Shown: piece after piece, positions 1-56,317 of the stretch
How the letters are laid out: each line of letters begins with the position of its first letter
Numbering within the stretch: the first letter of the stretch is position 1
DNA from: a virus
Lineage: Duplodnaviria > Caudoviricetes
IMG/VR virus record: IMGVR_UViG_3300050138_000012
Span: 1-56,317 of that record
Strand: one strand, 5' to 3'
DNA length: 56,317 bases
The notes under the pieces: model-generated
What the model was told of the DNA's origin: nothing
What the model saw: only the letters and a program-made list of their open reading frames with translations
Databases searched by the model: none
Program-made: the position numbers and the translations under genes

Positions 1-240
1 CTCAGGTCAGCACTACTCAGGTCAGCACTACTCAGGTCAGCACTACTCAGGTTAGCACCACTAAGGTTAGCACTACTCAGGTTAGCACTACTCAGGTCAG
101 CACTACTCAGGTCAGCACTACTCAGGTCAGCACTACTCAGGTTAGCACCACTAAGGTTAGCACTACTCAGGTTAGCACTACTCAGGTTAGCACCACTCAG
201 GTCAGCACCACTCAGGTCAGCACCACGCAGGTTAGCCCTA
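1..240. repeat. 15-bp tandem repeat, ~16 copies (ctcaggtYagcacYa)
   Basis: Directly visible; encodes the pentapeptide repeats on the minus strand. Confidence 0.95.
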
Positions 241-368
241 TTTTTTATCACCCACTTAACCGCTAATCCCAGTTTAATAGAATTTGATTCACTTGGTGAA
301 CATTCAATCTCAGCTGTAAACATTACACGATCAGAGAATCTGTGTCGTACTTCAAACCTTTCAAGCAT
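1..368 (-). CDS. Pentapeptide-repeat protein, 3'-truncated at window edge (absent from ORF track)
   Basis: ATG at 368 after GGAG; reads MLERFEVRHRFSDRVMFTAEIECSPSESNSIKLGLAVKWVIKNRANLRGADLSGADLSGANLSS..., i.e. A(D/N)LSx repeats, with no stop before base 1. Confidence 0.9.
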   Translation of the reverse strand, partial: MLERFEVRHRFSDRVMFTAEIECSPSESNSIKLGLAVKWVIKNRANLRGADLSGADLSGANLSSANLSSANLSGANLSSADLSSADLSSADLSSANLSSANLSGANLSSADLSSADLSSADL

Positions 369-600
369 ACCTATATCTCCCTCTAATCTTCGTTAATACA
401 TTCAGCTCTTCATTGTTAAAAGCGATCTCATCATAATCATCAGACCAGCTATCTAAATGATTAGCATGCTTAGCAGGATATCTAACCACTGGTTTTAAGC
501 CAATCTTATAGCCTGTGAGATAGCCGAAGCCTTTGATAGGTACAGGAGTAGCAGATATTCCTTCCTCTATTCCTAGAGCCTCTAATCGATGCTCAAGCAT
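361..600 (-). CDS. Hypothetical early protein
   Basis: ORF; start moved to ATG 600 overlapping the upstream stop, same junction style as at 361-368. Confidence 0.6.
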   Translation of the reverse strand: MLEHRLEALGIEEGISATPVPIKGFGYLTGYKIGLKPVVRYPAKHANHLDSWSDDYDEIAFNNEELNVLTKIRGRYRYA

Positions 601-988
601 ATGCCCGTCGTTCAAAGGCGCTCTTAATACGCAGCCTCATCAACTTAGTCAGGTGATCTGCCCCTAATTTCATGGCAAGGGACATAGCCGTATTACCAAA
701 ACGATCCTGCATCAAAGCATACTCAACATCAAGATCAAGGATTGCTTCAATGCGCTGAACATGATTGGTTACGACAGCTTCAAGCAATTCAATCACCATC
801 ATTGGCGTTTCAGTTTCAACGATCAGATCGTATGATTTATCCCAGTTTGTTTTCTCATCTTTCTGATGTGAAGCTTTTCTAAACTCATTGAAGTTACGCT
901 TTTCAGCGTTAAACTCGCGGTCATCTTTGTTAAACAGGACGTTCAGAGTATTGATTGCAATAACAGCTTCTTTCGAATGTGCTTTCAT
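593..988 (-). CDS. Ankyrin-repeat-like protein
   Basis: GGAG RBS before ATG 988; C-terminal LLEAV..NHVQRIEAIL and QDRFGNTAMSLAMKLGADHLTKLM resemble the ankyrin D..G.T(P/A)L..A...G consensus. Confidence 0.6.
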   Translation of the reverse strand: MKAHSKEAVIAINTLNVLFNKDDREFNAEKRNFNEFRKASHQKDEKTNWDKSYDLIVETETPMMVIELLEAVVTNHVQRIEAILDLDVEYALMQDRFGNTAMSLAMKLGADHLTKLMRLRIKSAFERRAYA

Positions 989-1213
989 TATAGACTCCAT
1001 GCTAAAGTGTTTAAGAATTCATAAGTTTCTTGTTTAGGCCAAAGGCTCTGCACAAGGATGACTTCCCACGACATGACAGACGTGATAAAACCTAGTCATT
1101 TAGAAACGTATTAGGCTTCGTATGACCGTTTACAATCTTTATTTGGTGCATAAAAGGTTAGGTTTTGGACATGCAAAACTTCCGCACGTTGCAGCGGATT
1201 GGTATGATAGTAA

Positions 1214-1360
1214 TCAGCTCTGATCTTCACCGACAATTTGATTGTGGTGGTAGGCTTGCTTTGAGTCGTATTTCATTAACCAGATAAAGAGTTTCCAAGC
1301 GATAGATGAATCATAATCGTGAGAGATATCAAAGAGATAGCTTCTGATATAGTTAATCAT
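1214..1360 (-). CDS. Small hypothetical protein (48 aa)
   Basis: AAGGA upstream; MINYIRSYLFDISHDYDSSIAWKLFIWLMKY...; below ORF-track cutoff. Confidence 0.4.
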   Translation of the reverse strand: MINYIRSYLFDISHDYDSSIAWKLFIWLMKYDSKQAYHHNQIVGEDQS

Positions 1361-1619
1361 TTGGATTCTGTTCCTTGCGATGACGACTTGCCAGAACTTA
1401 TGTCCAGCTTTGTCAGATTAATTAAACGATTTGGTGGATTTAGATACCACGAATGTGGTGTTTTGATTTAGACATTTTTGATAAAGCCTCAATCCAATTA
1501 CCCATCTATGAGTCTGTAATGGCGCATGCTGAGAGCATACGTATTCACTAGGCAATCCTTAAACTGCAAAGCGTCTCATAGCACATTACTATGCTATTCC
1601 GGCACATAATATTCCCGTA

Positions 1620-1856
1620 TTATGTGTTAGTGCAAGCGTGCTTGCCTTTTATAAACTTATTAATAAAGGTTTGCTTGCTTGGTGCTGCTACTAACGCTGC
1701 AAAGTCAGCGACATCAACATTAGCATATTCGTATGTTGAATTAGTCCGTCTGTAGGTCACAATAAGATTATGTGTAACGATATCATATTCAATACGCTGT
1801 ACATTCTCACTATGAAAATCAACACCATCTTCAATGACTAGATTTAAAGCTTCCAT
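1620..1856 (-). CDS. KTSC domain protein
   Basis: SENVQRIEYD...LIVTY..STYEYANV....FAALVAAPSKQTFINKFIKG matches the KTSC pattern; GGAG RBS. Confidence 0.85.
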   Translation of the reverse strand: MEALNLVIEDGVDFHSENVQRIEYDIVTHNLIVTYRRTNSTYEYANVDVADFAALVAAPSKQTFINKFIKGKHACTNT

Positions 1857-1865
1857 AATAGACTC

Positions 1866-1946
1866 CTATATGAAAACAAACAATGCACATATGAAAACTA
1901 TTGCTAATGTGATAGCAATAACCTGATCTTCTTCTGCGTCTGACAT
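1866..1946 (-). CDS. Small single-pass membrane peptide (26 aa)
   Basis: AAAGGAA RBS; MSDAEEDQVIAITLAIVFICALFVFI; stop abuts RBS of KTSC gene. Confidence 0.55.
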   Translation of the reverse strand: MSDAEEDQVIAITLAIVFICALFVFI

Positions 1947-2104
1947 ATCGTAGTTCCTTTTCTATTCAATCGTTGCCGCCAATTAACACGATGATAGTAG
2001 TGACCTAACAGCCCTATATGGAAAACACCATATAAGTTAACATAATTATACAAAGACATTCACTACACTACGCTTCTTTATGGTAATCGTAGTGGATTAC
2101 ACAT

Positions 2105-2145
2105 AATAAAACCCTAGGTCTGGGATTATCCATAACCTAGGGCTT
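2105..2145 (-). terminator. Rho-independent terminator
   Basis: CCCTAGGT...ACCTAGGG stem followed by TTTTATT on minus strand, just after the 2167 stop. Confidence 0.7.
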
Positions 2146-2166
2146 CGTTATAGCTTAGTGCAGGGA

Positions 2167-2811
2167 CTAGGCAGCGACTGCCTTTTCCGTAACAACGGGC
2201 GTGTTCTTTTTAACTTCCGCTGTAGTCAACGGTTTAAGCACCATAACAATCTCTTGTTCTAGAGCATGGACTCGAGCCATTGTGGCGTCCAGTGTAATCT
2301 TGCCATCTTTGATTGACTTGTCAATAAGCGTAATTGACTTGTCAGCGCGGTCATACAAGCGGTCATACACGGTTGCTTCTGTCTTTTCTTCCGCCATTTC
2401 AAACTTGTAGAAAGGCAAGAGTCTAGCTTTGGCAAGTAATTCAGAGCCGATTTCCTGATCTTCCTGATAATTCTTTTTTACGGAATTCAGGTTAACGTTT
2501 TTGGAAAACTTCTTTGACCCATCGCTAAATGCGGCATTGGAAAATTCCTTTACCCATTTAACAAATGCCGCTTTACGGAAAAGATTTCCGTCTTCATTCA
2601 GAATGTCGTAAAACTCTTGAATTTTGACGGGATTGCCACAATTATGGAAATGGCGCAGGGATTCGAATGAACCTGTTACCATATCGTCGCGTAAAGTGTT
2701 TTTGTTTTCGCGGATACTTTTCAGAATCGTTGTGAGCGCCGTATCGTCAGCCTTCGTCCACCTGTAATTCGCTACAGGTGTTACAGCGGCATTGTTTTGA
2801 GCGTTTGTCAT
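2167..2811 (-). CDS. Hypothetical early protein
   Basis: Long ORF; GGAAGGA RBS favours ATG 2811 (MTNAQ); followed by terminator. Confidence 0.8.
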   Translation of the reverse strand: MTNAQNNAAVTPVANYRWTKADDTALTTILKSIRENKNTLRDDMVTGSFESLRHFHNCGNPVKIQEFYDILNEDGNLFRKAAFVKWVKEFSNAAFSDGSKKFSKNVNLNSVKKNYQEDQEIGSELLAKARLLPFYKFEMAEEKTEATVYDRLYDRADKSITLIDKSIKDGKITLDATMARVHALEQEIVMVLKPLTTAEVKKNTPVVTEKAVAA

Positions 2812-2890
2812 ATTATAGTTTCCTTCCATATCAAAGCATGTTTTAACGCATGGCTTTGTCGTAATACAGGATTATTTTACACGCCCCTGA

Positions 2891-3076
2891 TTAAGCGTGA
2901 TTCTTACGAATAAGGTTAAGCCGTTCTTGACTCGGCTTTTCTAAATGGTCATAACGCATGAACCGATTATTTGCTTTGCCATAACCGGAAAGCTTGCGTG
3001 TTTTTCTGGTTAACTCTGGTTTATGGTTGAATGTTTTCAAGGGCTTAACAATGAAATGTGCAGCCATGTTATGCAA
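2891..3076 (-). CDS. Small basic hypothetical protein
   Basis: ORF overlapping the upstream stop; AGGAG RBS. Confidence 0.55.
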   Translation of the reverse strand: MHNMAAHFIVKPLKTFNHKPELTRKTRKLSGYGKANNRFMRYDHLEKPSQERLNLIRKNHA

Positions 3077-3422
3077 TCTCCTTACTATGGAAAATTGCCA
3101 ATTGTCGTGACCAGCGTTCGGATTCGCCCGTTGCTCTTGTCGCTTGTTTTTGTTTAACAGGTTTATGGAAAGGGCGTTTATTTTCCTTAATAATACGCTT
3201 GGATTTAATCGCCTCGGTTTTCGCCATTGGCTGTAACACCCTATAGCCCTTTGCAGAGCGATTCTGCTTTACACCATTGCGGTCATAGAATTCAACATCC
3301 CATGTTGCCTTGCCAACACCTGCAACACGATTAGGGATTAATGCCATATCTTGTCGCCATTGTTTCGCGTGCTCATTAGCTTTTTGCAATCTTTTGACCG
3401 CTTGCGATAATTCGTTAAGCAT
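3069..3422 (-). CDS. Basic hypothetical early protein
   Basis: ORF in tightly packed minus-strand chain. Confidence 0.65.
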   Translation of the reverse strand: MLNELSQAVKRLQKANEHAKQWRQDMALIPNRVAGVGKATWDVEFYDRNGVKQNRSAKGYRVLQPMAKTEAIKSKRIIKENKRPFHKPVKQKQATRATGESERWSRQLAIFHSKEIA

Positions 3423-3660
3423 GCCTCGCCCCTTCCGGTAAAATGCCTTTTACAACATTATGGATGCGCCGTTTTTGGAAATTGGCATAATCTGATCTAA
3501 GCTTTAGGGATTTTTCGTAAGAAGCTTTAATTTCCGCTTGGCGCTTTTCCATATTGGATACTGCGTTTTTGGCAGCGTAATAAGCTTTCCTCGGTTTAAG
3601 CCTAGCAGACTCAGCTTTACGTGCTTGAATCCGTTCAAGCTTATCATTTATGGTAAACAT
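3415..3660 (-). CDS. Basic hypothetical protein, first gene of early arm
   Basis: GGAG RBS; chain with 8-nt overlaps. Confidence 0.7.
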   Translation of the reverse strand: MFTINDKLERIQARKAESARLKPRKAYYAAKNAVSNMEKRQAEIKASYEKSLKLRSDYANFQKRRIHNVVKGILPEGARHA

Positions 3661-3684
3661 AGTTATTCACTCCATGTTATTTGA

Positions 3685-3892
3685 CATATAGCTCGACTCC
3701 CTAGTGACTAGTAACTTCTTTACCGTGCCAACAAGCGCAATTATTATGGAAATACTTTGCCATATTTCAGACATAGTTTTTCACCGTAGTTGACCTATAT
3801 TTGAATCTCAGTTTCACCCAAGTCCAATAGGACAATTACCATAATGATTCACCCATTGGCACGCCTTGCACCGTAGGGAGTCGGGCTATATG
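3685..3892. ncRNA. Candidate structured RNA leader / fold-back element
   Basis: Nested inverted repeats: 3685-3703 with 3874-3892, 3724-3731 with 3856-3863, 3743-3753 with 3835-3845, inner hairpin 3766-3805. Confidence 0.5.
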
Positions 3893-3924
3893 CCCTAGGA
3901 AAGTCAATCACTGTCCATCTTTCA

Positions 3925-3953
3925 AGCCTACTCCGATTCGGGATAGAAAGCAA
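3925..3953 (-). promoter_or_regulatory. Putative early promoter with YGATTCG motif in the spacer
   Basis: TTGCTT-17 nt-TAGGCT on minus strand pointing into early genes. Confidence 0.45.
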
Positions 3954-4047
3954 CATAAGATATTATCCTATGATATCATGGGGATATAAAGCTTTGCTAA
4001 TCTCATAACGAATCAGGAAAGGCGAATCACTGCCCTGAATAGTATTT

Positions 4048-4473
4048 CCATAATACTGTTTTTGGCTGGCATTATAGCATAGTATCCGATTCGTTTCTAT
4101 TTCAAAGATAGGTAATGGATTGAAAGATTATTAGTTTTCCATAAAGTTTAGAATACTATTTCCATAATAGTTTTGCAAGGGATTAGTCATAATAATTTGA
4201 GTTAACATATTAATAAAAGGTTAACGGCATTTGTCATAATGTTAGTTGTCATAACTCTGGGCGTTAATAAAGGTTAACATACTACTAATGGTATTTACCA
4301 TAACACAATGTCATAAGAGTTAATGTCTTACTTTAAGTCTTATGTGAAAGTAAATTACATTGTCATAATCGTTTGTCATAAGTATTTTCCGTAATAAATA
4401 GCCCGTTGTAGGTCACGCCCATATATATTTCCCATAAGAATTCTGGTACATTTACCATAATCATTTCCCATAA
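4048..4473 (+). repeat. Array of ~14 co-oriented YCATAA motifs (TTTCCATAA / TTGTCATAA)
   Basis: Copies at 4048, 4139, 4162, 4187, 4234, 4249, 4298, 4311, 4363, 4376, (4389 variant), 4432, 4455, 4468. Confidence 0.8.
4210..4225. promoter_or_regulatory. CtrA-box-like site TTAA-N7-TTAAC
   Basis: TTAATAAAAGGTTAAC; near-copy with N6 spacer at 4264-4278; AT-rich context lowers significance. Confidence 0.4.
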
Positions 4474-4772
4474 TGCTGGAATGTTAGGGAAAATAGTCTG
4501 TTAGAATGTTATGGTTAATGTTAGTATTATGTAAATTGATTATGGCAGAAGGTGGGGGGAAAGATTTGGGGGGTGTCTTTGTTAGTATTCACACCCAATA
4601 GAAATTTATAGTATATTTACAAAGGCTTAAGTACCTGAATATATTTTTACATATATTTCCTATATAAACCCCCTATGTTGCCTGTATAATCCCTATATCT
4701 GATATAATATAGTTATGTGTAATGGGTATATTTGTGTTATAATAATATAATAGATGACAATTAGGAGATATT

Positions 4773-5261
4773 ATGGCTAATTTACCAGCCCACATCCAGA
4801 CTATATTCGATAACCTGACCGTATTCCAGAGAACCTACTGCGAATACCGTTCAAAGGGATTGTCTCAAGCTACCTCTTCTGAGAAAGCTGGTTCTAATGG
4901 CAAGGATAAGAATGCTCTTGCCTGTGTCGGGTATGCCATTGAGCAGTTGGATGGTGTAAAGGAGTACATCTCCCATCTCCAGCAGGAGAGAGCTAAGGTA
5001 TTTCCAATTGATGAGCTGGAGATTGTTGCTAAACTCAGAGATGTTTACACTGAGTGTATGCGTAATGAAGATTACAAGGAAGCTAATAAAGCTTTGGAAC
5101 TAATGGGAGCTATAATTGGTCTGTTTGGTAAGAATAAGATTATGGTTAAATCAGATACCAGCTCAGAGGCGTTCAAGGATGAGGGCTTAGAGACCAGTGC
5201 CAGTGAGAGAATGGCTAAGCTTCAGTCTATGATGAAGGATCTAAAGAAGGGTAATGACTAA
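4773..5261 (+). CDS. terS: Terminase small subunit
   Basis: AGGAG RBS; N-terminal LTVFQRTYCEY...QATSSEKAG HTH-like segment, KALELMG motif; directly upstream of terL. Confidence 0.75.
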   Translation: MANLPAHIQTIFDNLTVFQRTYCEYRSKGLSQATSSEKAGSNGKDKNALACVGYAIEQLDGVKEYISHLQQERAKVFPIDELEIVAKLRDVYTECMRNEDYKEANKALELMGAIIGLFGKNKIMVKSDTSSEAFKDEGLETSASERMAKLQSMMKDLKKGND

Positions 5262-5405
5262 GATCAATGGGTTAGCAATATCCGCTAAGTAGTCTAAGAC
5301 ATATTCTAGAACATTACTTAGACAAGTTAATTCCCTAGATCCATCCCCCAAACCCCCTTCATTATAAAGAAAGCCAATTACAAGTATACCACAAACTACA
5401 AGGAC

Positions 5406-6995
5406 ATGCAAATGGTATTCAACATAAAGGACATTGAGAGGCTGGAGAGGGAGCTCCTCGATCAGCTCATTGTCCAGTCAAGGACTTGTTTTTACACATT
5501 TGTTAAGCTGATGGCTCCGACAGTCCTCCCAGAAGACTTCGTAGACGGTCAACACATCGGTATCATCTGCTCCCAGCTACAGGATGTTGTCGAATCAGTA
5601 GAAAACAAAGACCGTCGCCCCAGACGGCTACAGATCATGCTCCCTCCTGGCTCCATGAAATCCAAGATCGCTTCCAATCTATTCCCAGCCTGGTGCCTAG
5701 GTAGAAATCCAAACTGGTGCTTCCTAGCTATTGGGTCAGATCTTGAATTCGCAATAGACAACTTTGGGAGGCCTACAAAGGACCTGATTGATTCCCCCCA
5801 GTACCGGTCCATCTTCCCTAACACAGCGCTTAAAAGGGACGTCCAGGCCTCAGGACGATGGGATACAACTAAGAAGGGTCGATTTGTAGCTAAAGGGGTA
5901 GGTCAGAACATCGCAGGTCGTAGAGCCCACATCTCCATCTGTGACGATGTTATCACTGAGCAGACCAATGATAACGGCAGAGCAGATATCAACAAATGGT
6001 ATCAGAAGGGTCTTAGAACACGCTTACTCCCAAGAGGAGCTGAGATCATCATCAACACTAGGTGGTTTGTCGAAGATCTGTCTGGTTTTATGATCAGGAA
6101 GGATGAGAAGACCTCAAGACCTTGGGATGTTATCCAGATACCAGCTATTCTGCACCAGAAGGCTTCTGACGCCCTCAGAGTTGGTCTTCCTGCATCTGAT
6201 ACCCGATTCGCCGTGGGTACGAGCTTCTGGCCTGAGTTCTGGCCTACTCAACTGCTTCTAGAGAAGAAGGAGACAATGAACCCTGCTGAATGGACCGCAC
6301 TATACCAGCAGGAGCCTATATCAGACGACAGTGGCCTTGTAAAAAGGTCAGACTTCCAAATCTGGGACAAGAAGGAGCCGCCTAAATGTCGCTATGTAAT
6401 AGTTTCAATAGACACAGCCCTCTCTCAAAAGGATGCCGCAAATTTCTCTGCGTATACGGTGTGGGGGGTATTTACCAACCTTGTTCAATCGATGGATACC
6501 CAGATAGCCCAGGATTCAATGATCCTTTTATCCGCAGGAAGAGGCAGATGGGACTTCACCGAGCTTTGTGGCCAGATGCGAGAGATAGACCTAAAATACG
6601 CCCCTGAGTACTTCATTGTGGAAGAGGCATCAGCTGGTCTACTTCTGATCCCTGAAATGCAGAAGCGGGGGATGCCGGTTCTACCTCATAAGCCAAAAGG
6701 GGATAAAACATCAAGACTGCAAGCCTGTACCCCCTATTTCCAAGCGGGTAGGGTGTTTGTACCTTCTGGTAAACAGTGGGCTGAGGATGTAGTTCTGGAA
6801 GTAATCTCATTCCAGCCCAGGTTAAGGAACCAGGTTGACGACTATACCGATACAGTTTCACAGGCTGTTATATGGATGCGAGATAACTATAAGATTGATA
6901 ATGATGGATATTCTAATCATTGGGATGAAGAAATCATGACAGCAAGGCGTAAAACCTACTGGTCCTCGATGATGGAAGGCACCCTCAGAAACTAA
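5406..6995 (+). CDS. terL: Terminase large subunit
   Basis: Walker A-like MLPPGSMKS, GRRAHISICDD Walker B, TRW coupling motif, nuclease SIDTA...DDYTD. Confidence 0.95.
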   Translation: MQMVFNIKDIERLERELLDQLIVQSRTCFYTFVKLMAPTVLPEDFVDGQHIGIICSQLQDVVESVENKDRRPRRLQIMLPPGSMKSKIASNLFPAWCLGRNPNWCFLAIGSDLEFAIDNFGRPTKDLIDSPQYRSIFPNTALKRDVQASGRWDTTKKGRFVAKGVGQNIAGRRAHISICDDVITEQTNDNGRADINKWYQKGLRTRLLPRGAEIIINTRWFVEDLSGFMIRKDEKTSRPWDVIQIPAILHQKASDALRVGLPASDTRFAVGTSFWPEFWPTQLLLEKKETMNPAEWTALYQQEPISDDSGLVKRSDFQIWDKKEPPKCRYVIVSIDTALSQKDAANFSAYTVWGVFTNLVQSMDTQIAQDSMILLSAGRGRWDFTELCGQMREIDLKYAPEYFIVEEASAGLLLIPEMQKRGMPVLPHKPKGDKTSRLQACTPYFQAGRVFVPSGKQWAEDVVLEVISFQPRLRNQVDDYTDTVSQAVIWMRDNYKIDNDGYSNHWDEEIMTARRKTYWSSMMEGTLRN

Positions 6996-7000
6996 ATCCT

Positions 7001-7029
7001 TTGACTTTAACCCCTTAGTATGGTATAAT
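7001..7029 (+). promoter_or_regulatory. sigma70-type promoter for portal
   Basis: TTGACT-17-TATAAT. Confidence 0.8.
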
Positions 7030-9928: not shown

Positions 9929-10456
9929 ATGGCTGATTCTACTCTTACTCCCTCTACCATGGTTAAAACTACAGGATTTGATAATACCTATGAAGCAAAG
10001 AATAAGCTCAGTTCTAATGGGTGGATTACAGATCCTCGTGTATCTGATCCGGAGCATCTGCCTGAGCCTCTTGGCTGGCATATACTTATTAGGCCTTATC
10101 CTGTTGTAACGAGTGCTAAGACCACTCTTATCATCCCTGGTTCAGAAGTAGACTTCCTCAACTACATCACCAACATTGGACGTGTGGTCTCAATTGGACC
10201 AGCTTGCTGGAACCGTTCAGAGCATAAGTTCGATGGGCATCGACACCCGTGGGTTAAGGTAGGGGATTTTGTATCATTCCCTAAGAATGTGGGTGCAAAA
10301 CGTAAGTTTAAGGGTGTTTCATTCGTGATCCTGCAAGATGACGAGATTGTAGAACGCCTTTCTGATCCTCAAGTATTTAATGATTCATTCTACCAGCTGG
10401 ATGTCCCTGAAGAGCACATGCTGAAATACAATACATATAAAAAGGAAACTGAATAA
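9929..10456 (+). CDS. GroES-like co-chaperonin
   Basis: PLGWHILIRP, GRVVSIGP, WVKVGDFV.F, ILQDDEI match the Cpn10 pattern. Confidence 0.85.
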   Translation: MADSTLTPSTMVKTTGFDNTYEAKNKLSSNGWITDPRVSDPEHLPEPLGWHILIRPYPVVTSAKTTLIIPGSEVDFLNYITNIGRVVSIGPACWNRSEHKFDGHRHPWVKVGDFVSFPKNVGAKRKFKGVSFVILQDDEIVERLSDPQVFNDSFYQLDVPEEHMLKYNTYKKETE

Positions 10457-11499
10457 TGGAAACAGGCTATAAACCAATCAATACCACTCAACCTACCCTT
10501 CAAGAGCTTGTAGATGCAGGCTCTAAGGTTGTAGATGTCGAATTGGAAGAAGATGTCAATGGCAAGGTCACAGAGCCAGAACCCGTTCCAGAGCTAGAGT
10601 TGACCCCTGCCCCTGTAGTCGAAGATAAAGAGATTAAGCGTAAGTCTCGTGCTCGGGAGCGTATCAAGGAGGTTCTTGCCGAAAGAGACGACTTTGCGGC
10701 TCAATTTGCTGCTGAGCGTAGGGAAAAAGAAGAACTTAAGAAGCAACTCCTCTATGGCAATACCCAGACTAAGGAATCCTTTAAACTGGCACTTGAGGAT
10801 CAGATCAAGTCTCTTACCCAGCAAATGTCAGCTGCCATGCGGGATGGCCAGTCAGATCTGGTTGTAGCTTTGCAGGATCAGCTTATCAATGCGAAAATGG
10901 AGTTGAAGCCCCTTACTACTGAACTTCTTGCGAATCGGCAAGAGATTCAAAAGACCGAATCGGCTCCTAAAACACAAGCACAAGCTCCGAATCAGATTCC
11001 TGAGAAAGCTCTTGAATGGATCTCCGATCATCCTGAGTTCCGCACTGATGAAGTATTCAATGCAGCAGCAATTGCTACGAATAATCAACTACTTAGAGAA
11101 GGCTTTGACCCTAAGACTGATGAGTTTTATGAAGAAATTGACACACGTCTTTCTAAGCGCTTTCCAGAATTGTTTGGTGTAGCGTCTCAGAATAGTGTAC
11201 AATTAAGTAATAAAACTATTTCGTCTGACGGAAAACAACCGGACGTTAAAGATCAAGTTGTGGACGTGGCTCCAGCCGCGAGTACTAAGGTAAGAACTGT
11301 AGAACAAGTTGTGTCCGGTTCCTCACGCCCCTCAGCGAATACTATTTCCAAGAGCAGAACTACTCAAGTAACTCTATCCGCGCAGGATGTTAAGCAAGCA
11401 GAAGCGTGGGGTTGGTCGCTAGAACGCATGGCTCGAAGAATAGCTCACCAAGAGGCTAATAGATCAGAAAATGGGTATGTTCCCATTCACATGTCTTAA
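10456..11499 (+). CDS. Putative capsid scaffolding protein
   Basis: Acidic N-terminus, coiled coil, position upstream of capsid genes. Confidence 0.65.
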   Translation: METGYKPINTTQPTLQELVDAGSKVVDVELEEDVNGKVTEPEPVPELELTPAPVVEDKEIKRKSRARERIKEVLAERDDFAAQFAAERREKEELKKQLLYGNTQTKESFKLALEDQIKSLTQQMSAAMRDGQSDLVVALQDQLINAKMELKPLTTELLANRQEIQKTESAPKTQAQAPNQIPEKALEWISDHPEFRTDEVFNAAAIATNNQLLREGFDPKTDEFYEEIDTRLSKRFPELFGVASQNSVQLSNKTISSDGKQPDVKDQVVDVAPAASTKVRTVEQVVSGSSRPSANTISKSRTTQVTLSAQDVKQAEAWGWSLERMARRIAHQEANRSENGYVPIHMS

Positions 11500-25255: not shown

Positions 25256-25284
25256 TTGACTTAACCTTTTAGATATGGTATAAT
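25256..25284 (+). promoter_or_regulatory. sigma70-type promoter for ejection-protein operon
   Basis: TTGACT-17-TATAAT, ATG 5 nt downstream. Confidence 0.8.
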
Positions 25285-29800: not shown

Positions 29801-29867
29801 TATCGTGGATGGTCATAGATTCTTGGGTGGCGATCCTTCTGATCCTAACAGCTGGGCGGCACAATAA
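26829..29867 (+). CDS. Internal virion / DNA ejection protein
   Basis: Hydrophobic Gly/Ala N-terminus, Gln-rich, YMNPY and GAFGGSR motifs, seven [FYL]xxGG repeats, C-terminal DGHRFLGGDP...W. Confidence 0.75.
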   Translation: MAAAVGAGAAVVGVGAQLLGGSQGNQGTATQGTTTPQVPSWLLPYLQQNAATANTLASQPYQPYTGQQVNPLTAMQNQAGTMSQSLADNGAAITGMNAANAVQTNVANQGQNGLNPATIQSYMNPYTNSVIDATNLRAQQQEQLQQNQLQAQQGQTGAFGGSRASLAQGQLQSNFAQQQSQNNATMMQNNFTNAENMGMQGLGQANSAAQGMMQSTAGAQTAQLQNIGALQTAGGLQQTTGQNQDNAAYQDFLTQQAYPYQQLANSQNILNPIGSLTTGTNATGFTQQSGSPGLLQTALGSAAAGASIGNSLSGSNAFGFLNSSAPYNSSATDNSGIPSLSDAQASVADDTANVANGSISQGNLDFSQAEVSNIRDALATGGMVPHSRGYAQGGQVQQPSLSDHINHFIDTYAKHFANGGLIKSDKTDIPGVPTQYGMTQEEMPYTSQKPKYLIPAYAKGGQIPLQSGLSDANVPGIKRERQHWGKPYVPQTKNDPGYLRPDVKNALATGGMIGIPQFSNGGLTAHYGIPGFEEGGVAPDIGLIMGDADNGQSGIDAMFGDPTQAASSTNTMTTPGSIADETPEYAAWRAQQMQSSSPTLDKLSAWADQPSPLWNIGNGPAAPPNPTTGLNFNPGAGTKSGSDWSTPSGNSGGYGPAQGPATMGSVAHGDINSLANTVLNPQSTNAPGSANYAPDKDYVGKAEDAVSNLFKMFVPSGKVGDTSATAPTKDASEPTPQQHATDVAASGAAADILAAGGTEAQAKSAYIAKGGNPTTWADASASFAGDKTGTRAAAPVQRTSAIAPDAGQQTSSATGDIDNTINSGDTPQEKYEKYQNLMMNKILNGPGGPNSKVNLPLLSMGAAILGNRSNSLAGAIGAGGEAYTKTAQAQSAQNMELMQKMMMAHYYEGRNGIQQQRVDQNAPLVAAKINNLEQLPQGDPQKKQYDMAVQNGLKNGMSAQDAKAQAAAAFPDSLTTPNTSTSGQAAPAIGAIVDGHRFLGGDPSDPNSWAAQ

Positions 29868-32800
29868 TGACTTCGGGACCTTGGGATAATTACACACCAT
29901 CTAGTCTGCCTCCTGCACTTACAGACATAGGGCCAGATCAAGGTGCTACGAGTGATGGTCCTACAGTACCGCAGCTGCTTGCCAGCAATCCTTCAGCTGG
30001 CCCTTGGGATAAATACGCAGCTCCTGTAGCTGATGGTCCTTGGTCTAAGTATGCCTCTATGAACACCCCTGCTGCCAGCGATGACGGGGAAGCTTACAAA
30101 GGTCTTCGCAGAGGCTTGACTGAGACTGGTGAAGCTTTAAAGATGCTTCCTGATGTAGCTGAGGCCTCATTCAATAAGCACATTGCCCCTGTATTTGACC
30201 AAGATAAGATTAAACAAGATGCATTAGCATATCAGAAAGCTATCGATGCTTCTAATGCACAATATCCCGATGCAGTTCCTTCCTATAAAGACATACACAG
30301 TGCATCAGATCTTGCAAAATACGGTGCCAGTGCCTTAGGTGGCGCTGCTCCTGGTCTTGCGATGATGGCAATTCCTGGTGGTTTTGCAGGCAGTATGGCT
30401 AAAGAAGGTGCAGAATTGGCTGCTAAAGAAGCTGTTCAGTCTGCTGCTGTTGAGGCTATCGGTGGTCTCAGTGAACAAGCTGGTACAAAGATTGCCGACA
30501 AAGCAGCACAATCATTCATAAATAAAGCAACTGTTGCTGGCTCTGCAGCTGGTGCTGCTTCAACTGCTATCCCTCAAGACTACACATCATGGTTGAACCG
30601 TGGAGTTGATGCTCCTGATACAGCCATCTTTGCTGGTGGTGTGACGGGCGGTCTAATGGCCGTGATGCCAGGAACTGTTATGGGCAAGGTCTTAGGTGAT
30701 GACCTAGGCTCTCAGGTATTAGGCGCTAATTTAATGGAGAAGGTCGGTATCAGATCACCTCTCATCCAGAAAGTTCTTTCACATGCTGTTGTAGGTGCGG
30801 CTGAACTTGGTACTGCTGGGGCCACAGCTGAAGGATTGAATTTACTTGCTGAGCATGAGATAGGTTTAAATCCTAATCTCTACACTAAAGAGAATCTCAA
30901 TCGTGTATTCGAAGCTGGTTTTACAAACGCTATAGGCGGTGCTATTATGGGTGCTGCAGCTGCTCCATTCATCAACCATGCAGAACTGGGTACTACTCTA
31001 TCTAAGGAGGGGAATAGGCCTGCTAATGTAAAGCCTTTAGATTTGACTTCTACTGAGCATACCAAAGCATTTCAAGAAGCCCAAGATCTTAAAGAGAAGA
31101 CTGCTGTTACAGCTGAACAGAAACAAGCCGTAGCTGATGACAAGATGAATGTGGGTATTAAGAACGATGATATCAAAGCTCAAGTGGCAGCTGGTCCTTC
31201 GCATTCTGAAGACGCTCAACTTACACCTGTCTGGATGTCTAAAGAACAGGTGAAGAAATATCAGGATATGGGTCTTAGCGTAGAAGACATGCAGAAAATC
31301 AATCCTCTTGATCAGATCTTTGCTGAACATCTTATCGCCGAATCTCAAGATCCTAAGAACAAAACCTTCGATGACTATTCTAAAGCACCTGAAGGAACTG
31401 ATCCAAGACCATTAGAAAAAGTTGGTATTAAGGATCAAAATCGACTACAGGAATGGTCTGATGAGGCGCTAAACGCTAAGTTCCAACGTACCACACCTAC
31501 TCTGGATTCATTTAAATCTTGGTTCGGTGGTAGCAAGGTAGTGGATGCTCAAGGTCAACCCCAAGTCATGTACCATGGCACTAGTAAAGATGTTGACTTT
31601 AAAAGATTTAATATCGGTCAAAGAGGAGCCTGGTTTCATCCAGATCCAAAAGAAGCCAGTATGTATGCCGAAAGCAATGACAGCCAAGGACATAAATTAG
31701 ATCCGGATAAACCTGGTTGGAATTTAATTCCTACGAATACTCGCTCTAGAGTAATCCCCACGTATTTAAAAATGGAAAATCCCTATTTCCCTTCTTCTGA
31801 AGACTACAAAAAACTTTATGGCGATGGGAATGGTAATTCTTATCAGAAAAATCAAAGAGACATAGCGAATAAGGCAAAAAAGCTTGGTCATGATGGCATA
31901 GTTCTGCCTGGCGGCACTCACGTGGTATTCGATCCTAGGCAGATTAAGTCTATTTGGAATGGAGAATTTGATCCGCATGATTCTAAATTTCAGCGTTCCC
32001 TAACAGGGCACCCTAATCTCCACCAATCCTTCTTGCAAGCTCACACATTTGGTAATGCTTTCGAAGGCCTTGAGCATACTAAAGAAGGACTAGAGAAGCA
32101 TGTCGATGTAGCCAATGCTCTGAATAGAATCGGTCAAGAGCTTACTGGCTCGGCTAAGTTTAAGTTCTGGGACCATCTTCAAACACGTTTTGAAAAAGAC
32201 CCTGTGCGTGGTGCGCAATACCTGAATATGATACACGTCGCCATCAATGATAGTACCTCCTTTGCCAATGCCAAAGAAACGCTCTACCATGAAGTTTGGC
32301 ATTACTTAGAGGGCAATGGCTTTATTACTGATGCGGATAGAGCCTTGTTCGATAAGAACCGTGACCTCGCTATAGAGTACATGCGTAAAGATGGATGGTT
32401 AAAGGATCAAGACTATGATCACTTGATGAAGACCCAAGAAGGTCGTGAAGAAATTAGAGCCAATATGTATGGTAAAATGTCAAGGGAAATGAACCTTGAT
32501 AATAAGAATACATTGCCAGGAATATTCAAAGGCATGTTTGGCAAAGCTAGATCGCTAATACAGCGGATTAAGTATATGCTAAAGGGTCAAGATATTAAGG
32601 CCCTACAAGACTTTGTTCGAAACACTAGTGAAGGCGGTAAGATGGATCAAGAAGGTAAAGGAACTGTAGAGAAAGGAAGAGGTCAAGAGCCTATATCATC
32701 TGTAGAGAAGATCCATGAAAATCTAATGTATAATGCAGCTACGTTCAGAGCACAGCGCATGGAACAGTCTCAAAGAAAAGCTGAAAGTGATGAAGCTATG

Positions 32801-35800
32801 GCTAAGCACAGAGAGATCTTACAGCAATACGTAGATGGTAAAGTACCGTTTAGAGATGCAGTAAAATCCTCTGTAATCTTTGATAAGAATCGTATGATAA
32901 GGGACAATGTAGGTGATAGGGCTCTATGGGCTCAATGGCTCCAAACCCCTGCTAGGCTATCTGAAGAAAGCCCTTTCTTCTCTTTGCTTACTAATCACTT
33001 CCGTAATATTAAAAATTCTACAGCTAATCATATGTCTCGCTATAATGAATCCTTGAAAGAATGGAACAAGGCTGACCCTATGCTGAAGGCACAGGTAGGA
33101 GATCTTACAGCTAAAATGAAGATTGCAGGGCTAAAAAGCAAACTTAACCCAGATGGTCAGATGGAGTTTATGAATGAGAGTGGGAGCATTATACATCTTC
33201 TTAAAGACAAAGAGGCTTCCACCCTATACGGCCATTTACAAAAGGCAATGGCAGATGTTCATGAAGACCGACTGAACGGTTATAAAACCAAGGCGCGTGA
33301 AGTATTCAAAGACATCCTTCCAAAAGATTACCATACAGCTGAAGTAGACTCAGCTATACTGGCTTTGCACGGCACAGATAAAATCTCTTCAGAACGTATG
33401 GATATGCTGAAAGAACTCTCGGAGAACCTGCATAACTCTGATGTTATGAAGATGCACGACTATATTCCATTCTCTCGCTTCGGTCATTTTGGTATTACCG
33501 TCAGAGATCGTAACCAGCCAGTGTTAGATAAGAATGGTAAGAAGACAGGCGACTACAAGCAGGTTGCGCTGCACACGGTTGAATCCCAGCACTTTAATGT
33601 TCCTGGCAATCGTGGCAACTATAACATGCACCAACTGCAAAGAGAAGTCGCTAAGATCAAGGCCTTATACAGCGACACTAAGCGCTATGATGTTATTGGC
33701 GGTCAAGGCAAGATTACCAACTTTGATGATCATACTAAGATCCACCCATTCACCATTGATAAAAATGCTGTCGGCAATCAATTAGACCCACGTTATCTGA
33801 ACACTGAACTCCTGACCTCAATGATCAACTCGTCCTCTATGGACCCAGAAATGCATAAAGAGATTAAAGAGAAGCTGATGGGTGTGGTGGATGCTGAAGC
33901 CAATCGTAGAAGCTTTGGTAAGTTGTTTGGTAAGAGTGAGAAAACAGCGGGATACTCACAAGACTGGAACAGAGTGATACACACTTACGCTTCCGGATCT
34001 GCTCATATCTTGTCTAATCTGGAACATGCTCAAGATCGCGCTGCTTTAGACGCAGCTGTTAAGACCTTAGCCGATCATGGACTGCGTAAGCAGAGTGAAG
34101 CCTATATGTCTTATGTAGGAAAGCCTCAGGACGACTTACAAACCCTAAGAGCCTTCAATTACCTGTGGGCGATGGGTGGTAATTTCTCCTCAATGCTGGT
34201 TCAAATGTCAACATTGCCAACTATGTCATTAGGTCAGATGTGTAAGTACTCGCCTCATGTCCTACAAAATATGACCCTGATCGGTAAGCAATTTGTACAT
34301 GCTGCTGTCTATTACGCAAAAGGTGCAGATCACGCAGCTTTAGAGCACATGGTTAAGTCTGGTCGCTGGACTGTTGATCAAGCCAATACCTTCAGACGTG
34401 CAGAGATGGACTCTCATATCCAATCCCCCTCCCAATTAGAAGCTTTGGGTCAAAGACCTTATGAGAGGGAATCTGATGCAGGTAAGTTCAAGGGCAAGGT
34501 TAAATCCATTACCAATATGCTTTCCCTGCCTGTGTTTGTAGGTGAGCAAATAACCAGAGCCGCCACCTTTATGGCCACTCATGAGATGTTACAGGATAAG
34601 GCGGTAATGGATCGGTTTGAGAAAGTTCATAAGAACGATATGAATTGGCAAACCCAGAAATCAACCAATAACAAGCTATCTCCTGCCGAGAATGCGGGCA
34701 GGTATGTTCTTGATACGGCACACGGAGTATATGGCAAAGAGGGCAGGGTTGCAACGTATCGGGGTGTTGGTGGGGCATTATTCTTTCCTTTTATGACTTT
34801 CCCCCATAGAGCAATTGAGAGAATGATTACAGAGACCCATAAACAGGGCTCAGAGGGCCGTATAGCGCTTGGAGTTACTTTAGGTGCCTTAGCCCTCACC
34901 TCTGGTCTGATGGGCCTTCCTGGGGCTTCTGCAGCCACTAAATTAGCAGATGAATATGAAAAGCGCCACAAAGGTATCGAAACTAATACTGAGCAGATGA
35001 TTTATGAGAAGATGGCCCATATGACAGGGGATAGCCCTACAGCTGCTAAGATGCTTACTTACGGGGTAGGCAGAGCCTTCTTAGGGACAACCATTGGGGC
35101 TAGGTTTGGTCTTCCTGAATTGCCAATGCAGAATGCTTTGTTTAACTTCTTAGGAGTGGGTACGTCTACTCCCTCTAGCCAATACGGCGTAGAAGGTTCG
35201 ATTATTAGTTCATTTGGAAATGCTTATAATGCCTATCAACAAGGCTTGGGTCCAGCTACGGTTGCTGGGGCTATGATGCCTAATGGCATTGCAAATCTAT
35301 TTAAAGCTTATGATTTATCTCAGAATGGACTTAGAGCTGGTGGTAAAGATCCCCAGACTATTATACCACCTAAAGATGTGAGTGTAGGAACCATACTCAG
35401 TAAGATGGGTGGAATAACTTCAGATCAAATAGCTTCAATGAAAACAATCTTCTATGCTGCTAAGCTCGATAAGAGCGCAGGGAAGTATGCTGGTGCCTTT
35501 GATAGGTTTAAGGAGCAGGGCATCTCTCTGGCTACGCAAAGGGATAAGGCTGCTGCTAGAGGCGATGGTGCGGGGGTATCAGACTACACTAATCAAATTA
35601 ACAGTCTTTTGGCTGATGCTCGGCAGTTCGTTAAAGAGAACCCAGGGGCTAAGTATCCTACGACACTAATTCGAGAGATCAATATGGAAGCAAGGCAGAG
35701 AGCCACTGGTGCCTTCCCACAAGCTAAGAACTACCAACAGAGACAGCAAGCAACGGAAACAAGCAAACTTTACGGATACCCAGGAGTGTATGATGGTGCA

Positions 35801-35809
35801 GTTAAATAG
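29867..35809 (+). CDS. Large polyvalent internal virion protein (ART-like + HExxH metallopeptidase + PLxRFG)
   Basis: FKSWFGGSKVVD..G.P.VMYHGT...VVFDPRQIKS; TLYHEVWHY...EE.RA; DYIPFSRFG; three N-terminal GPWxxY. Confidence 0.8.
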   Translation: MTSGPWDNYTPSSLPPALTDIGPDQGATSDGPTVPQLLASNPSAGPWDKYAAPVADGPWSKYASMNTPAASDDGEAYKGLRRGLTETGEALKMLPDVAEASFNKHIAPVFDQDKIKQDALAYQKAIDASNAQYPDAVPSYKDIHSASDLAKYGASALGGAAPGLAMMAIPGGFAGSMAKEGAELAAKEAVQSAAVEAIGGLSEQAGTKIADKAAQSFINKATVAGSAAGAASTAIPQDYTSWLNRGVDAPDTAIFAGGVTGGLMAVMPGTVMGKVLGDDLGSQVLGANLMEKVGIRSPLIQKVLSHAVVGAAELGTAGATAEGLNLLAEHEIGLNPNLYTKENLNRVFEAGFTNAIGGAIMGAAAAPFINHAELGTTLSKEGNRPANVKPLDLTSTEHTKAFQEAQDLKEKTAVTAEQKQAVADDKMNVGIKNDDIKAQVAAGPSHSEDAQLTPVWMSKEQVKKYQDMGLSVEDMQKINPLDQIFAEHLIAESQDPKNKTFDDYSKAPEGTDPRPLEKVGIKDQNRLQEWSDEALNAKFQRTTPTLDSFKSWFGGSKVVDAQGQPQVMYHGTSKDVDFKRFNIGQRGAWFHPDPKEASMYAESNDSQGHKLDPDKPGWNLIPTNTRSRVIPTYLKMENPYFPSSEDYKKLYGDGNGNSYQKNQRDIANKAKKLGHDGIVLPGGTHVVFDPRQIKSIWNGEFDPHDSKFQRSLTGHPNLHQSFLQAHTFGNAFEGLEHTKEGLEKHVDVANALNRIGQELTGSAKFKFWDHLQTRFEKDPVRGAQYLNMIHVAINDSTSFANAKETLYHEVWHYLEGNGFITDADRALFDKNRDLAIEYMRKDGWLKDQDYDHLMKTQEGREEIRANMYGKMSREMNLDNKNTLPGIFKGMFGKARSLIQRIKYMLKGQDIKALQDFVRNTSEGGKMDQEGKGTVEKGRGQEPISSVEKIHENLMYNAATFRAQRMEQSQRKAESDEAMAKHREILQQYVDGKVPFRDAVKSSVIFDKNRMIRDNVGDRALWAQWLQTPARLSEESPFFSLLTNHFRNIKNSTANHMSRYNESLKEWNKADPMLKAQVGDLTAKMKIAGLKSKLNPDGQMEFMNESGSIIHLLKDKEASTLYGHLQKAMADVHEDRLNGYKTKAREVFKDILPKDYHTAEVDSAILALHGTDKISSERMDMLKELSENLHNSDVMKMHDYIPFSRFGHFGITVRDRNQPVLDKNGKKTGDYKQVALHTVESQHFNVPGNRGNYNMHQLQREVAKIKALYSDTKRYDVIGGQGKITNFDDHTKIHPFTIDKNAVGNQLDPRYLNTELLTSMINSSSMDPEMHKEIKEKLMGVVDAEANRRSFGKLFGKSEKTAGYSQDWNRVIHTYASGSAHILSNLEHAQDRAALDAAVKTLADHGLRKQSEAYMSYVGKPQDDLQTLRAFNYLWAMGGNFSSMLVQMSTLPTMSLGQMCKYSPHVLQNMTLIGKQFVHAAVYYAKGADHAALEHMVKSGRWTVDQANTFRRAEMDSHIQSPSQLEALGQRPYERESDAGKFKGKVKSITNMLSLPVFVGEQITRAATFMATHEMLQDKAVMDRFEKVHKNDMNWQTQKSTNNKLSPAENAGRYVLDTAHGVYGKEGRVATYRGVGGALFFPFMTFPHRAIERMITETHKQGSEGRIALGVTLGALALTSGLMGLPGASAATKLADEYEKRHKGIETNTEQMIYEKMAHMTGDSPTAAKMLTYGVGRAFLGTTIGARFGLPELPMQNALFNFLGVGTSTPSSQYGVEGSIISSFGNAYNAYQQGLGPATVAGAMMPNGIANLFKAYDLSQNGLRAGGKDPQTIIPPKDVSVGTILSKMGGITSDQIASMKTIFYAAKLDKSAGKYAGAFDRFKEQGISLATQRDKAAARGDGAGVSDYTNQINSLLADARQFVKENPGAKYPTTLIREINMEARQRATGAFPQAKNYQQRQQATETSKLYGYPGVYDGAVK

Positions 35810-41453: not shown

Positions 41454-41483
41454 ATTATACCATACTTAGAGTCTGTATGTCAA
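41454..41483 (-). promoter_or_regulatory. sigma70-type promoter for phoH
   Basis: TTGACA-18-TATAAT, ATG 6 nt downstream. Confidence 0.75.
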
Positions 41484-42091: not shown

Positions 42092-42324
42092 TTCATACTT
42101 ACTCTAGTTTGTGTTTTCGGCAAAGGATCGTTTCCAAACGCACGGATGGTCATTTCCGAGATCATCCTGGCTTTGAACATCTGGTACATTTCTTCAACAG
42201 AATTGGCATAGGTTGTTACTTTACCTGCTTCGTCAATAGAAGATCTATCGAATTGGCGGAAGTATCGTTCCCAATCTTCCCCTTGTTGGTTAGCGTACAT
42301 TTCTTCTCTCCTAATATAAATCAA
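42088..42324 (-). CDS. Hypothetical protein
   Basis: Coupled ORF, GGAG RBS. Confidence 0.6.
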   Translation of the reverse strand: MIYIRREEMYANQQGEDWERYFRQFDRSSIDEAGKVTTYANSVEEMYQMFKARMISEMTIRAFGNDPLPKTQTRVSMK

Positions 42325-42857
42325 TCAGCAAAGTTTATCTCCTTAGGGAAATTGAAACCATGCGTAACCCACATACCAGCAAACCAAGGCTTCCCTTTAA
42401 AGGTTCCATCAGGAAACTCAAAGTCTATCCGTTTAGGAAGCACTACTATTTCCACTCCGTGCGCCCTATACAGACTTTGCCTTTTCTTTCCTTCCAAGGC
42501 CGCAAAAGGCAGGAGTAGTGCAAAGGGTTTATTATACTCATAACACTTAGCCAGAAACTGGTCTTTAAGCGAGAATGGGGGATTGGTAATGATATAATCG
42601 AAGTTCTCCACGGGCCCTGTAGTCTCAAGGAAGTCTACTCCTGTCATTATGTCTGTACCAATACACGACTGGTTCATGGCTTTAAGTGCTTCTACTATTC
42701 GCCCTCTGCCACATGCTGGCTCCCATACAATGCCATTTAAAGGCTTAGGGAGGGCATTGAGAAGGCTTATTACAGGCCATCTGGGTGTTTGAAGGTTATC
42801 TGAATGGTTGCGCCCCATGCGGGCTAGAATACCTTGTGGTTTAGAAACCAGTGTCAT
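42321..42857 (-). CDS. DNA N6-adenine (or N4-cytosine) methyltransferase
   Basis: WEPACGRG (motif I) and ITNPPF (motif IV). Confidence 0.85.
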   Translation of the reverse strand: MTLVSKPQGILARMGRNHSDNLQTPRWPVISLLNALPKPLNGIVWEPACGRGRIVEALKAMNQSCIGTDIMTGVDFLETTGPVENFDYIITNPPFSLKDQFLAKCYEYNKPFALLLPFAALEGKKRQSLYRAHGVEIVVLPKRIDFEFPDGTFKGKPWFAGMWVTHGFNFPKEINFAD

Positions 42858-55571: not shown

Positions 55572-55796
55572 TCATTCTTCATCCTCATCATCAAACGCTA
55601 GGTCTTCATCATGGATGGATTCTTCACCTGTGATCTCTACAAACTCTTCCAAGTCCTCCATCATATCGTCTAGCAATGGCCCTATGTATTTATTATAGGC
55701 TGAACCGTACTGTGCTTTAAGCATCGGCCTAGATTCTTTGATATGGTTCTTAAACATCTCTAGTTCTTCAAAGTCTTGGGTTGAAACTATTCTCAT
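55572..55796 (-). CDS. Small acidic hypothetical protein
   Basis: ATGA overlap with upstream stop; acidic C-terminus. Confidence 0.55.
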   Translation of the reverse strand: MRIVSTQDFEELEMFKNHIKESRPMLKAQYGSAYNKYIGPLLDDMMEDLEEFVEITGEESIHDEDLAFDDEDEE

Positions 55797-56317
55797 GGTG
55801 TTGGTGCTCTCATGAGACGATCTAGTTCCGCCTCGTCTGCAGGAGGCAGAGCAATCTGTTGACGAATAGCCGACCAAACTGGCGACTCACGCTTTGTGTG
55901 TGAACCTATCCTAATAAACTCTTTATCATACCAGTTGCGGTATGAGTTCAACGTTGAGCGTGCGACTACAGCTTTTGGGAATACAAAAGGCTTCTTGTTA
56001 TTATCTTGCTGATAAGGATCTGGAACATTGTAAGGAGGGGTTTTAAAAGCTTTTTCCACCTCGTTCCTATCCCAGTAATTAAGCTGTGCTGCATAGTTCT
56101 TATGCAATCTTGAAAGTAATGGTTTTGTGACATGCTCTTTTTCAAAGCGGTACTCATACTCAGTAAATAGCTCTGCCCACATCTTATAAAGCCATTTCCA
56201 ATTTTGATCTGACGCTTTCAACCATGATAAGTACAGAGTATCTACATCCATTTTCGGATGATAAATTGTCTTCATAATGTCTTCATCATCACAGGCTACC
56301 CTACACACATATGATAG
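55793..56317 (-). CDS. Pyrimidine-dimer DNA glycosylase (DenV/Pyr_excise)-like protein, 5'-truncated
   Basis: W...S..NWKWL.....L..EY..RF.K.H and SYR.WY motifs; frame open to window end (LSYVCRV...). Confidence 0.6.
   Translation of the reverse strand, partial: LSYVCRVACDDEDIMKTIYHPKMDVDTLYLSWLKASDQNWKWLYKMWAELFTEYEYRFEKEHVTKPLLSRLHKNYAAQLNYWDRNEVEKAFKTPPYNVPDPYQQDNNKKPFVFPKAVVARSTLNSYRNWYDKEFIRIGSHTKRESPVWSAIRQQIALPPADEAELDRLMRAPTP

Follow-up and report, generated by a model that had tools for sequence, protein, structure and literature searches.

A cluster of four YGATTCG heptamers was identified in the divergent control region of an uncultured phage genome and, judged by comparison with related loci, constitutes a genuine conserved cis-regulatory element on a predicted early promoter. 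The best single candidate for the reader of these sites is a host system of the GcrA/CcrM type, to which we assign a probability of roughly 40%, and the conservation of the cluster hints that the phage may read the cell-cycle state of its host.

The heptamer cluster in the divergent control region

The window analyzed was the whole of IMG/VR virus record IMGVR_UViG_3300050138_000012 (56,317 bp; estimated completeness 95%). Plus-strand genes, among them terS (4773), terL, portal, GroES-like, scaffold-like, major capsid and tail genes, extend to 35809, and minus-strand genes run leftward from 3660 past the start of the record and occupy its far end back to 35848. The minus-strand arm encodes a primase-helicase, a family A DNA polymerase, a Cas4-like exonuclease, PhoH and a small methyltransferase. 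The last plus-strand protein, a 1980-residue product of the virion arm (29867-35809), carries an ART-PolyVal ADP-ribosyltransferase domain at residues 560-698. Because the leftward genes begin at 3660 and terS at 4773, the heptamers fall in a divergent non-coding region of 1112 bp (3661-4772), in which the G+C content is 33% compared with 43.8% in the record. The original prediction had described this stretch as an early control region; it is indeed the divergent control region, and the name is a reasonable one.

The phage had also been described as showing no repressor of its own, and repressor-like, GcrA or CcrM-type genes were not found in it. The GcrA family PF07750 gave no match in six frames of the window but did match in the control genome of Caulobacter vibrioides, and the CcrM-type family PF01555 was not found in the window. 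The small N6-adenine DNA methyltransferase (42321-42857, minus strand; motifs EPACGRG and NPPF) is not CcrM-type, and comparison with PDB sequences yielded weak matches that give no specificity. Nothing usable was obtained from NCBIfam for 13 proteins, the window contained no tRNA genes and no Rfam matches at the gathering score, and positions 3000-6000 had no DNA similarity to any of 50,697 phage records.

All four heptamers were located within 160 bp as originally reported: CGATTCG at 3934-3940 (plus strand), TGATTCG at 4009-4015 and 4023-4029 (minus strand), and CGATTCG at 4087-4093 (plus strand). The two minus-strand copies form a tandem pair 14 bp apart, the second in the extended form GTGATTCGC. 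The strong signal is this clustering, which is non-random: the maximum of four per 160 bp was reached in none of 1000 dinucleotide shuffles, and three were reached in 2 of 1000. Enrichment of the heptamer was thus marked locally and weaker over the whole window, where the total of 13 (7.13 ± 2.94 expected) was equalled or exceeded in 4 of 100 shuffles.

Four further GANTC sites had been listed beside the cluster, at 3695, 3803, 3846 and 3878. The sites exist, but 3695 pairs with 3878 and 3803 with 3846 in a predicted stem, and they therefore represent two events rather than four. Near the heptamers, GANTC occurred 10 times in 500 bp, a density reached in 10 of 1000 shuffles, although the shuffled sequences held more GANTC in total. 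Over the genome GANTC was depleted (134 sites against 205 ± 12 expected; Markov O/E 0.72, the second lowest among the 16 NN-N-NN palindrome classes), with O/E values of 0.94 in the early arm (1-3660), 2.02 in the control region, 0.56 in the structural arm and 0.79 in the rest of the minus arm. Scored against the count expected from base composition alone (O/E0), the early arm gave 1.37. By the same ratio the early arm and control region were enriched (1.4-2.3) and the structural arm depleted in the window and in the related loci L011, L015 and L022; L024 and L027, conversely, purge GANTC from the early arm (0.17-0.27). The genome-wide depletion was considered as proof of a CcrM-type methylase and dropped: other palindromes were likewise depleted (CCNGG, O/E 0.48; GGTACC, 0 against 12.9; GGATCC, 0 against 8.1), so the depletion of GANTC alone is not specific. 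The strong avoidance of GGTACC, GGATCC and CCNGG suggests pressure by restriction systems.

Conservation and promoter context

TerL searches returned 7 viral-contig and 18 metagenome loci, and conservation was assessed in the six relatives (L011, L022, L025, L004, L015 and L024) that share 66% or more TerL identity and include no less than 3.3 kb of upstream sequence. Five of the six, all save L024, carried 2-7 heptamers within 200 bp, and the clusters were positioned alike, between the first leftward gene and the repeat array described below. No cluster was seen in the more distant loci, though several of these end early. When all 7-mers in six pre-array regions (2764 bp) were counted without bias and compared with the remaining 105,506 bp of those loci, CGAATCA/TGATTCG ranked first, with 18 occurrences against 0.69 expected and presence in 6/6 regions. 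The overlapping words that ranked next extended the consensus to aGTGATTCGc, and CGATTCG occurred 10 times against 0.28. The first base of the 32 heptamers collected was T in 21 and C in 11, with flanks that were weakly constrained, and a tandem spacing of 13-14 bp was shared by the window, L011 and L015.

The early proteins beside the cluster have diverged. Among eight window proteins searched by tblastn, four were matched in L011 and two in L025, with no match in L015, L022 or L004. Among 38 early ORFs from the relatives, Pfam gave no name beyond one weak helix-turn-helix match. No relatives of the second early protein (117 residues) were found in viral contigs, and relatives of TerS were confined to two loci already in the collected set. 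As the early proteins and the flanks diverge while the heptamer stays, the motif has been kept amid changing surroundings. The sole early protein kept across relatives is that encoded at 2167-2829 (minus strand; phrog_1448, approximately 200-255 residues), with homologues in L011, L015, L022, L025 and L024. Its C-terminus was Ala-Ala in 6/6 sequences, an ending that presumably resembles a C-terminal protease tag.

A second cluster of three heptamers (10931-10994, minus strand) lies within the variable linker of the scaffold-like gene (10456-11499). One to four heptamers occupied the same part of the scaffold-like gene in 5/5 relatives with TerL at least 67% identical, compared with 1/7 of those at or below 63%, and the two clusters co-occurred solely in the sub-clade at or above 67% TerL identity. 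Across five genomes these heptamers fell in different reading phases, using two to three frames, and all seven Glu-Ser dipeptides counted in the linker were encoded C-GAA-TCR. The different phases together with the uniform codon choice point to selection at the level of DNA. An internal promoter at the second cluster was considered and dropped, there being no TGNTATAAT nearby.

The extended -10 motif TGNTATAAT occurred 13 times in the window against 3.18 ± 1.79 expected, a number reached in 0 of 100 shuffles, and the majority of copies point toward genes of their own strand. In the control region a single copy lies on the minus strand, the TGCTATAAT at 4079-4071, which forms part of a predicted leftward early promoter (4071-4099, minus strand; TAGAAA, 17 nt, TG-C-TATAAT) scoring 10/12 matches with the TG in the promoter scan. 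The heptamer at 4087-4093 occupies the upstream part of the spacer of this promoter, with its centre at approximately -26 from the predicted start, and the tandem pair at 4009/4023 falls at approximately +53 and +39 from the same predicted start. Two heptamers had been placed in the spacers of minus-strand promoters. The one at 4087 was borne out, but for the one at 3934 the scan returned no promoter, and the best that could be read there by eye was a weak TTGCTT-17-TAGGCT. A weaker leftward promoter-like site was present at 3962-3990 (minus strand; TTTATA-17-GATAAT, with TGATATCAT at 3970-3978), relative to which heptamer centres lie at approximately -49 and +27.

The arrangement recurs in relatives. 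L004 contains TTGACA-17-TGCTATGAT, with one heptamer centre at approximately -23 and another overlapping the -10 element. L015 and L025 contain TTGACG or TTGCGA followed after 17 nt by TAGGAG or TAGGAC, which comes after a conserved TATGC; here, read by eye, the heptamer overlaps the -35 element, with centres at approximately -28 and -29, and the downstream heptamers of L015 lie at approximately +10, +21 and +35 from the predicted start. A heptamer is thus found within the -35/-10 spacer of a predicted early promoter in the window, L004, L015 and L025. On the plus strand, two rightward extended -10 promoters (TGATATAAT and TGTTATAAT, 4700-4743) are predicted ahead of terS, and TGTTATAAT likewise precedes terS in L004 and L002. 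Elsewhere in the window, the extended -10 form TGGTATAAT was located at 7021-7029, 25276-25284 and 41454-41462, only 2-6 nt before called start codons, which suggests leaderless mRNAs or miscalled starts.

The repeat array, leader and neighboring elements

The interval singled out by the original prediction is filled mostly by an array of 16 same-strand TTnYCATAA repeats (3835-4480, plus strand; fuller form TTnYCATAAnnnT), conserved in relatives and closed by three inverted CATAA copies (4507-4547, minus strand). CATAA was counted 22 times in the 1112-bp region compared with 149 in the whole window. Forward copies numbered 55 in L004 (2.4 kb scanned) and 45 in L025, and forward arrays of 5-23 copies per kb were present in every relative sharing 60% or more TerL identity (at 730-2390 in L004, 1-330 in L006, and also in L025), against a density elsewhere of approximately 1-2.4 per kb per strand. 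As these relatives include heptamer-free ones, the array is older than the heptamers and more widely distributed. In several copies the sequence is TGTCATAAT, which resembles an extended -10. Two known sites were tried for the repeats and rejected: a Pho box for TGTCATAA, in that TGTCA occurs in some repeats only and the repeats lie 13-15 bp apart instead of 11, and a SciP/CtrA half-site TTAACCAT, of which a single exact copy was present with the register off by one base.

After the array follows a G-run box, GGGGGGTGTC (4568-4577, plus strand). Similar boxes lie about as far from terL in L011, L022, L024, L006 and L005, and closer to it in L017. The terminal repeat of Lentibacter phage ICBM1 (L036) shares the 9-mer GGGGGTGTC, which may be chance. 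By analogy, the array may be tied to genome ends or packaging, since the annotated terminal repeats of ICBM1 occupy the equivalent divergent region. Phage T7 has short-repeat arrays (SRL/SRR) beside its terminal repeats, and these share with the CATAA array the presence of many irregularly spaced same-strand short repeats in the non-coding stretch that separates the early promoters from the start of the other arm. The repeat unit TTnYCATAA is, however, unrelated.

On the opposite side of the cluster, the segment 3661-3900 (minus strand) would, if transcribed, form a structured leader of the leftward operon. Its closing stem (3685-3703 / 3874-3892) is a 19-nt inverted repeat with 95% complementarity, giving a stem of approximately 19-24 bp, and the folding z score was -6.42, with none of 200 shuffles folding as well. 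Values for relatives were -5.65 in L011, -5.82 in L022 and -3.57 in L015, whereas that of L004 (-0.76) was not better than shuffles. The four core heptamers fall outside the folded leader.

Candidate readers, rival explanations and host

The YGATTCG heptamers would act as protein-binding sites controlling the leftward early promoter or promoters of a lytic phage, and the likeliest reader would be a host cofactor of the main sigma factor of the GcrA type. Early transcription would then depend on how much GcrA the host contains and on whether the phage DNA carries CcrM-type methylation, because GcrA prefers N6-methylated GANTC in exactly this context; binding protein and methylation are both inferred here. 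Published descriptions give the GcrA consensus as TGATTCG, or in its wider form YGAKTCK, and place boxes near -20 and at +2 to +30 (PMC4647560); a later one writes it as YGAKTCG, with boxes at -20 ± 1, -30 ± 2 and +5 to +30 (PMC9976885); the identity of the phage heptamer with the published preference, as first proposed, was upheld. All 4 window sites and all 32 collected sites fit the YGAKTCK/YGAKTCG context by construction. GcrA boxes of sigma-70 promoters of Caulobacter crescentus (for example PmipZ and PcsM) carry the same heptamer (PMC4647560, PMC9976885) and lie in the promoter spacer and just past the start, the same kind of place as in the predicted phage promoters. The phage spacer box, at approximately -26 from the predicted start, falls between the -20 ± 1 and -30 ± 2 given there (PMC9976885). 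GcrA is reported to bind as a monomer, which the asymmetric phage site fits and which is counted for the GcrA reading, and mostly with one box per promoter (PMC9976885); the phages, by contrast, carry four boxes in the window and 3-12 in relatives. The comparison is therefore exact in sequence, loose in geometry and a misfit in box number.

The retention of the heptamer in relatives provided an independent test of the first reading and supports GcrA. Counting against it, the broad motif YGAKTCK showed no enrichment over the window (38 against 45), the early arm was not depleted in GANTC, and the four phages of alphaproteobacterial hosts that were checked had neither the cluster nor enrichment of the extended -10. 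The match is also weakened as evidence by a selection effect, the motif having been picked in the first place for its resemblance to GcrA boxes. The literature retrieved with the word TGATTCG was mostly on GcrA, which counts for this reading, and the collection searched contained none joining GcrA, bacteriophage and early genes. phiCbK-like Caulobacter phages encode GcrA homologues (PMC3556154); GANTC has no occurrence in that phiCbK genome paper. Those phages carry a regulator gene, while the present phage has none by PF07750 and would bear the target sites instead.

Nearly as likely as a GcrA/CcrM-type reader is a dedicated sequence-specific DNA-binding protein of another kind, for which the heptamers would form an operator array with an incidental GANTC core; the binder could be encoded by the phage, for example as an early or middle protein that switches off or boosts the early promoter, or be another host factor. 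The many sites in both orientations, in tandem at 11-14 bp (4009/4023 in the window, 2161/2174 in L011 and 4546/4560/4571 in L015), look like cooperative operator binding, and the consensus aGTGATTCGc exceeds the length of the GcrA heptamer. The spacer site varies in position from -23 to -29, as compatible with a repressor as with an activator, and the confinement of the two joint clusters to a single sub-clade would be expected from a phage gene gained there. The promoter style is unlike that of the alpha-host phages checked, and a window protein (55793-56308) matches phrog_624, annotated 'DNA binding protein'. Such an array would, however, make the exact identity with the GcrA optimum a coincidence, and the dominance of the asymmetric TGATTCG (21/32) is unusual for a dimeric operator. 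A candidate binder was not found for the operator array, and the early genes beside the sites are not conserved among the phages that share the motif.

Other explanations are considerably less probable. Phage P1 pac consists of repeated TGATCA/G hexamers in which adenine methylation is required for cutting, and the present cluster resembles it in having short repeats, each with an adenine-methylation target, near terminase genes. That terminase reads the cluster as part of a signal for packaging or genome ends would agree with its non-coding location upstream of terS, beside the repeat array and the conserved G-run box, with the contigs of many relatives ending in or near the array, and with the annotated direct terminal repeats of ICBM1, whose replication genes resemble those of the window, in a divergent non-coding region. 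Such a role is nevertheless improbable: unlike pac, the cluster overlaps a good predicted leftward promoter and lies 0.7-0.85 kb upstream of terS; it is missing from L024, L005, L006 and L017, which keep the array and the G-box and must package; and a second cluster lies 5.5 kb into the structural operon. GANTC is palindromic around N, so that the arms of a stem make paired sites such as 3695/3878 and 3803/3846, and the heptamers might on that account be functionless by-products of composition, local duplication or RNA-structure arms. This is very hard to reconcile with a cluster that shuffling failed to reproduce, with a motif that stays while its flanks change, with the multiple reading frames of the scaffold-gene heptamers in five genomes, and with core sites outside the folded leader.

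Equally hard to credit is gating by CtrA, under which a TTAA-N7-TTAAC box and an N6 copy would tie early or late transcription to the swarmer or stalked state of the host. Both elements exist, TTAATAAAAGGTTAAC at 4210-4225 and TTAATAAAGGTTAAC at 4254-4268 (plus strand), the former being the one exact phage match to the CtrA consensus TTAA-N7-TTAA(C), and the element recurs in relatives. Their frequency, however, is that of chance: TTAA-N7-TTAA occurred three times in the window against 1.66 ± 1.20 expected, a number reached in 25 of 100 shuffles, and at least one copy arose in 268 of 2000 shuffles (13%) of the 1112-bp region. It was absent from the whole of L004 and from the control regions of L015 and L022, so that N7 is not kept in relatives. 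What is conserved in the window, L011, L015 and L022 is the entire 14-15-mer TTAATAAA(A)GGTTAA, with the spacer TAAA(A)GG maintained along with the half-sites and a spacing of N6 in three of five full copies. TTAATAAA(A)GGTTAA is a real element whose behaviour is unlike that of a CtrA site, and the CtrA part of the original prediction was not sustained.

An alphaproteobacterial host, which the GcrA/CcrM reading presumes, is inferred tentatively and at somewhat below an even chance. Siovirus, Lentibacter, Pelagibacter or Rhizobium phages (Alphaproteobacteria) made up 17 of the 20 best rows for the primase-helicase, the DNA polymerase, TerL, portal and capsid matches leaned the same way at approximately 30-43% identity, and the closest cultured phage by shared proteins was roseophage CRP-902 (11/65). 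GANTC O/E was 0.48, 0.54, 0.48 and 0.41 in four alpha-host phages and 0.93, 1.11, 0.88 and 0.86 in four non-alpha phages, one of which has a predicted host only; the value of 0.56 in the structural arm of the window is thus a hint of an alphaproteobacterial host. The same four alpha-host phages had 0, 0, 2 and 1 copies of TGNTATAAT, which was not enriched in them, against 13 in the window, and had 1-3 heptamers each without a cluster. The early region of ICBM1 looked as GANTC-depleted as the rest of its genome, compared with 0.94 for the early arm of the window. Phages that resemble the window in their two-arm layout and share ligase genes with it have Alcaligenes and Pseudoalteromonas as hosts. 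Also against an alphaproteobacterial host are the overall G+C content of 43.8% and the labelling of the sole listed run with the sequence as a peat metagenome, which may be its source; no RNA sequencing runs carrying the sequence were listed. A TerL profile found no relative in 185,579 species genomes, and therefore no prophage or binned relative reveals the host. The DUF5675 protein matched viral clusters only in the Protein Atlas, giving no host hint, and in HTVC027P the gene order upstream of terL differed, which precluded use of synteny.

The observations comprise the sites themselves, the fact that they cluster and are conserved, and the predicted promoter with which they overlap. It is less likely than not that an uncultured lytic phage lineage wrote the optimal GcrA/CcrM boxes of its host into both its early promoter and its capsid-assembly operon. 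If it did, infection would get fully under way only in replicating (S-phase) cells and only where the DNA is suitably methylated, and the phage, lacking a regulator gene of its own, would sense the cell cycle epigenetically through cis sites alone. Were the heptamers GcrA boxes, the early program would be timed by the methylation-plus-GcrA clock of the host, and the boxes would supply a sequence signature predicting alphaproteobacterial hosts of uncultured phages. Should another protein read them, the heptamers would still amount to a clean, conserved operator motif set in a defined promoter context, with a further site inside a gene.
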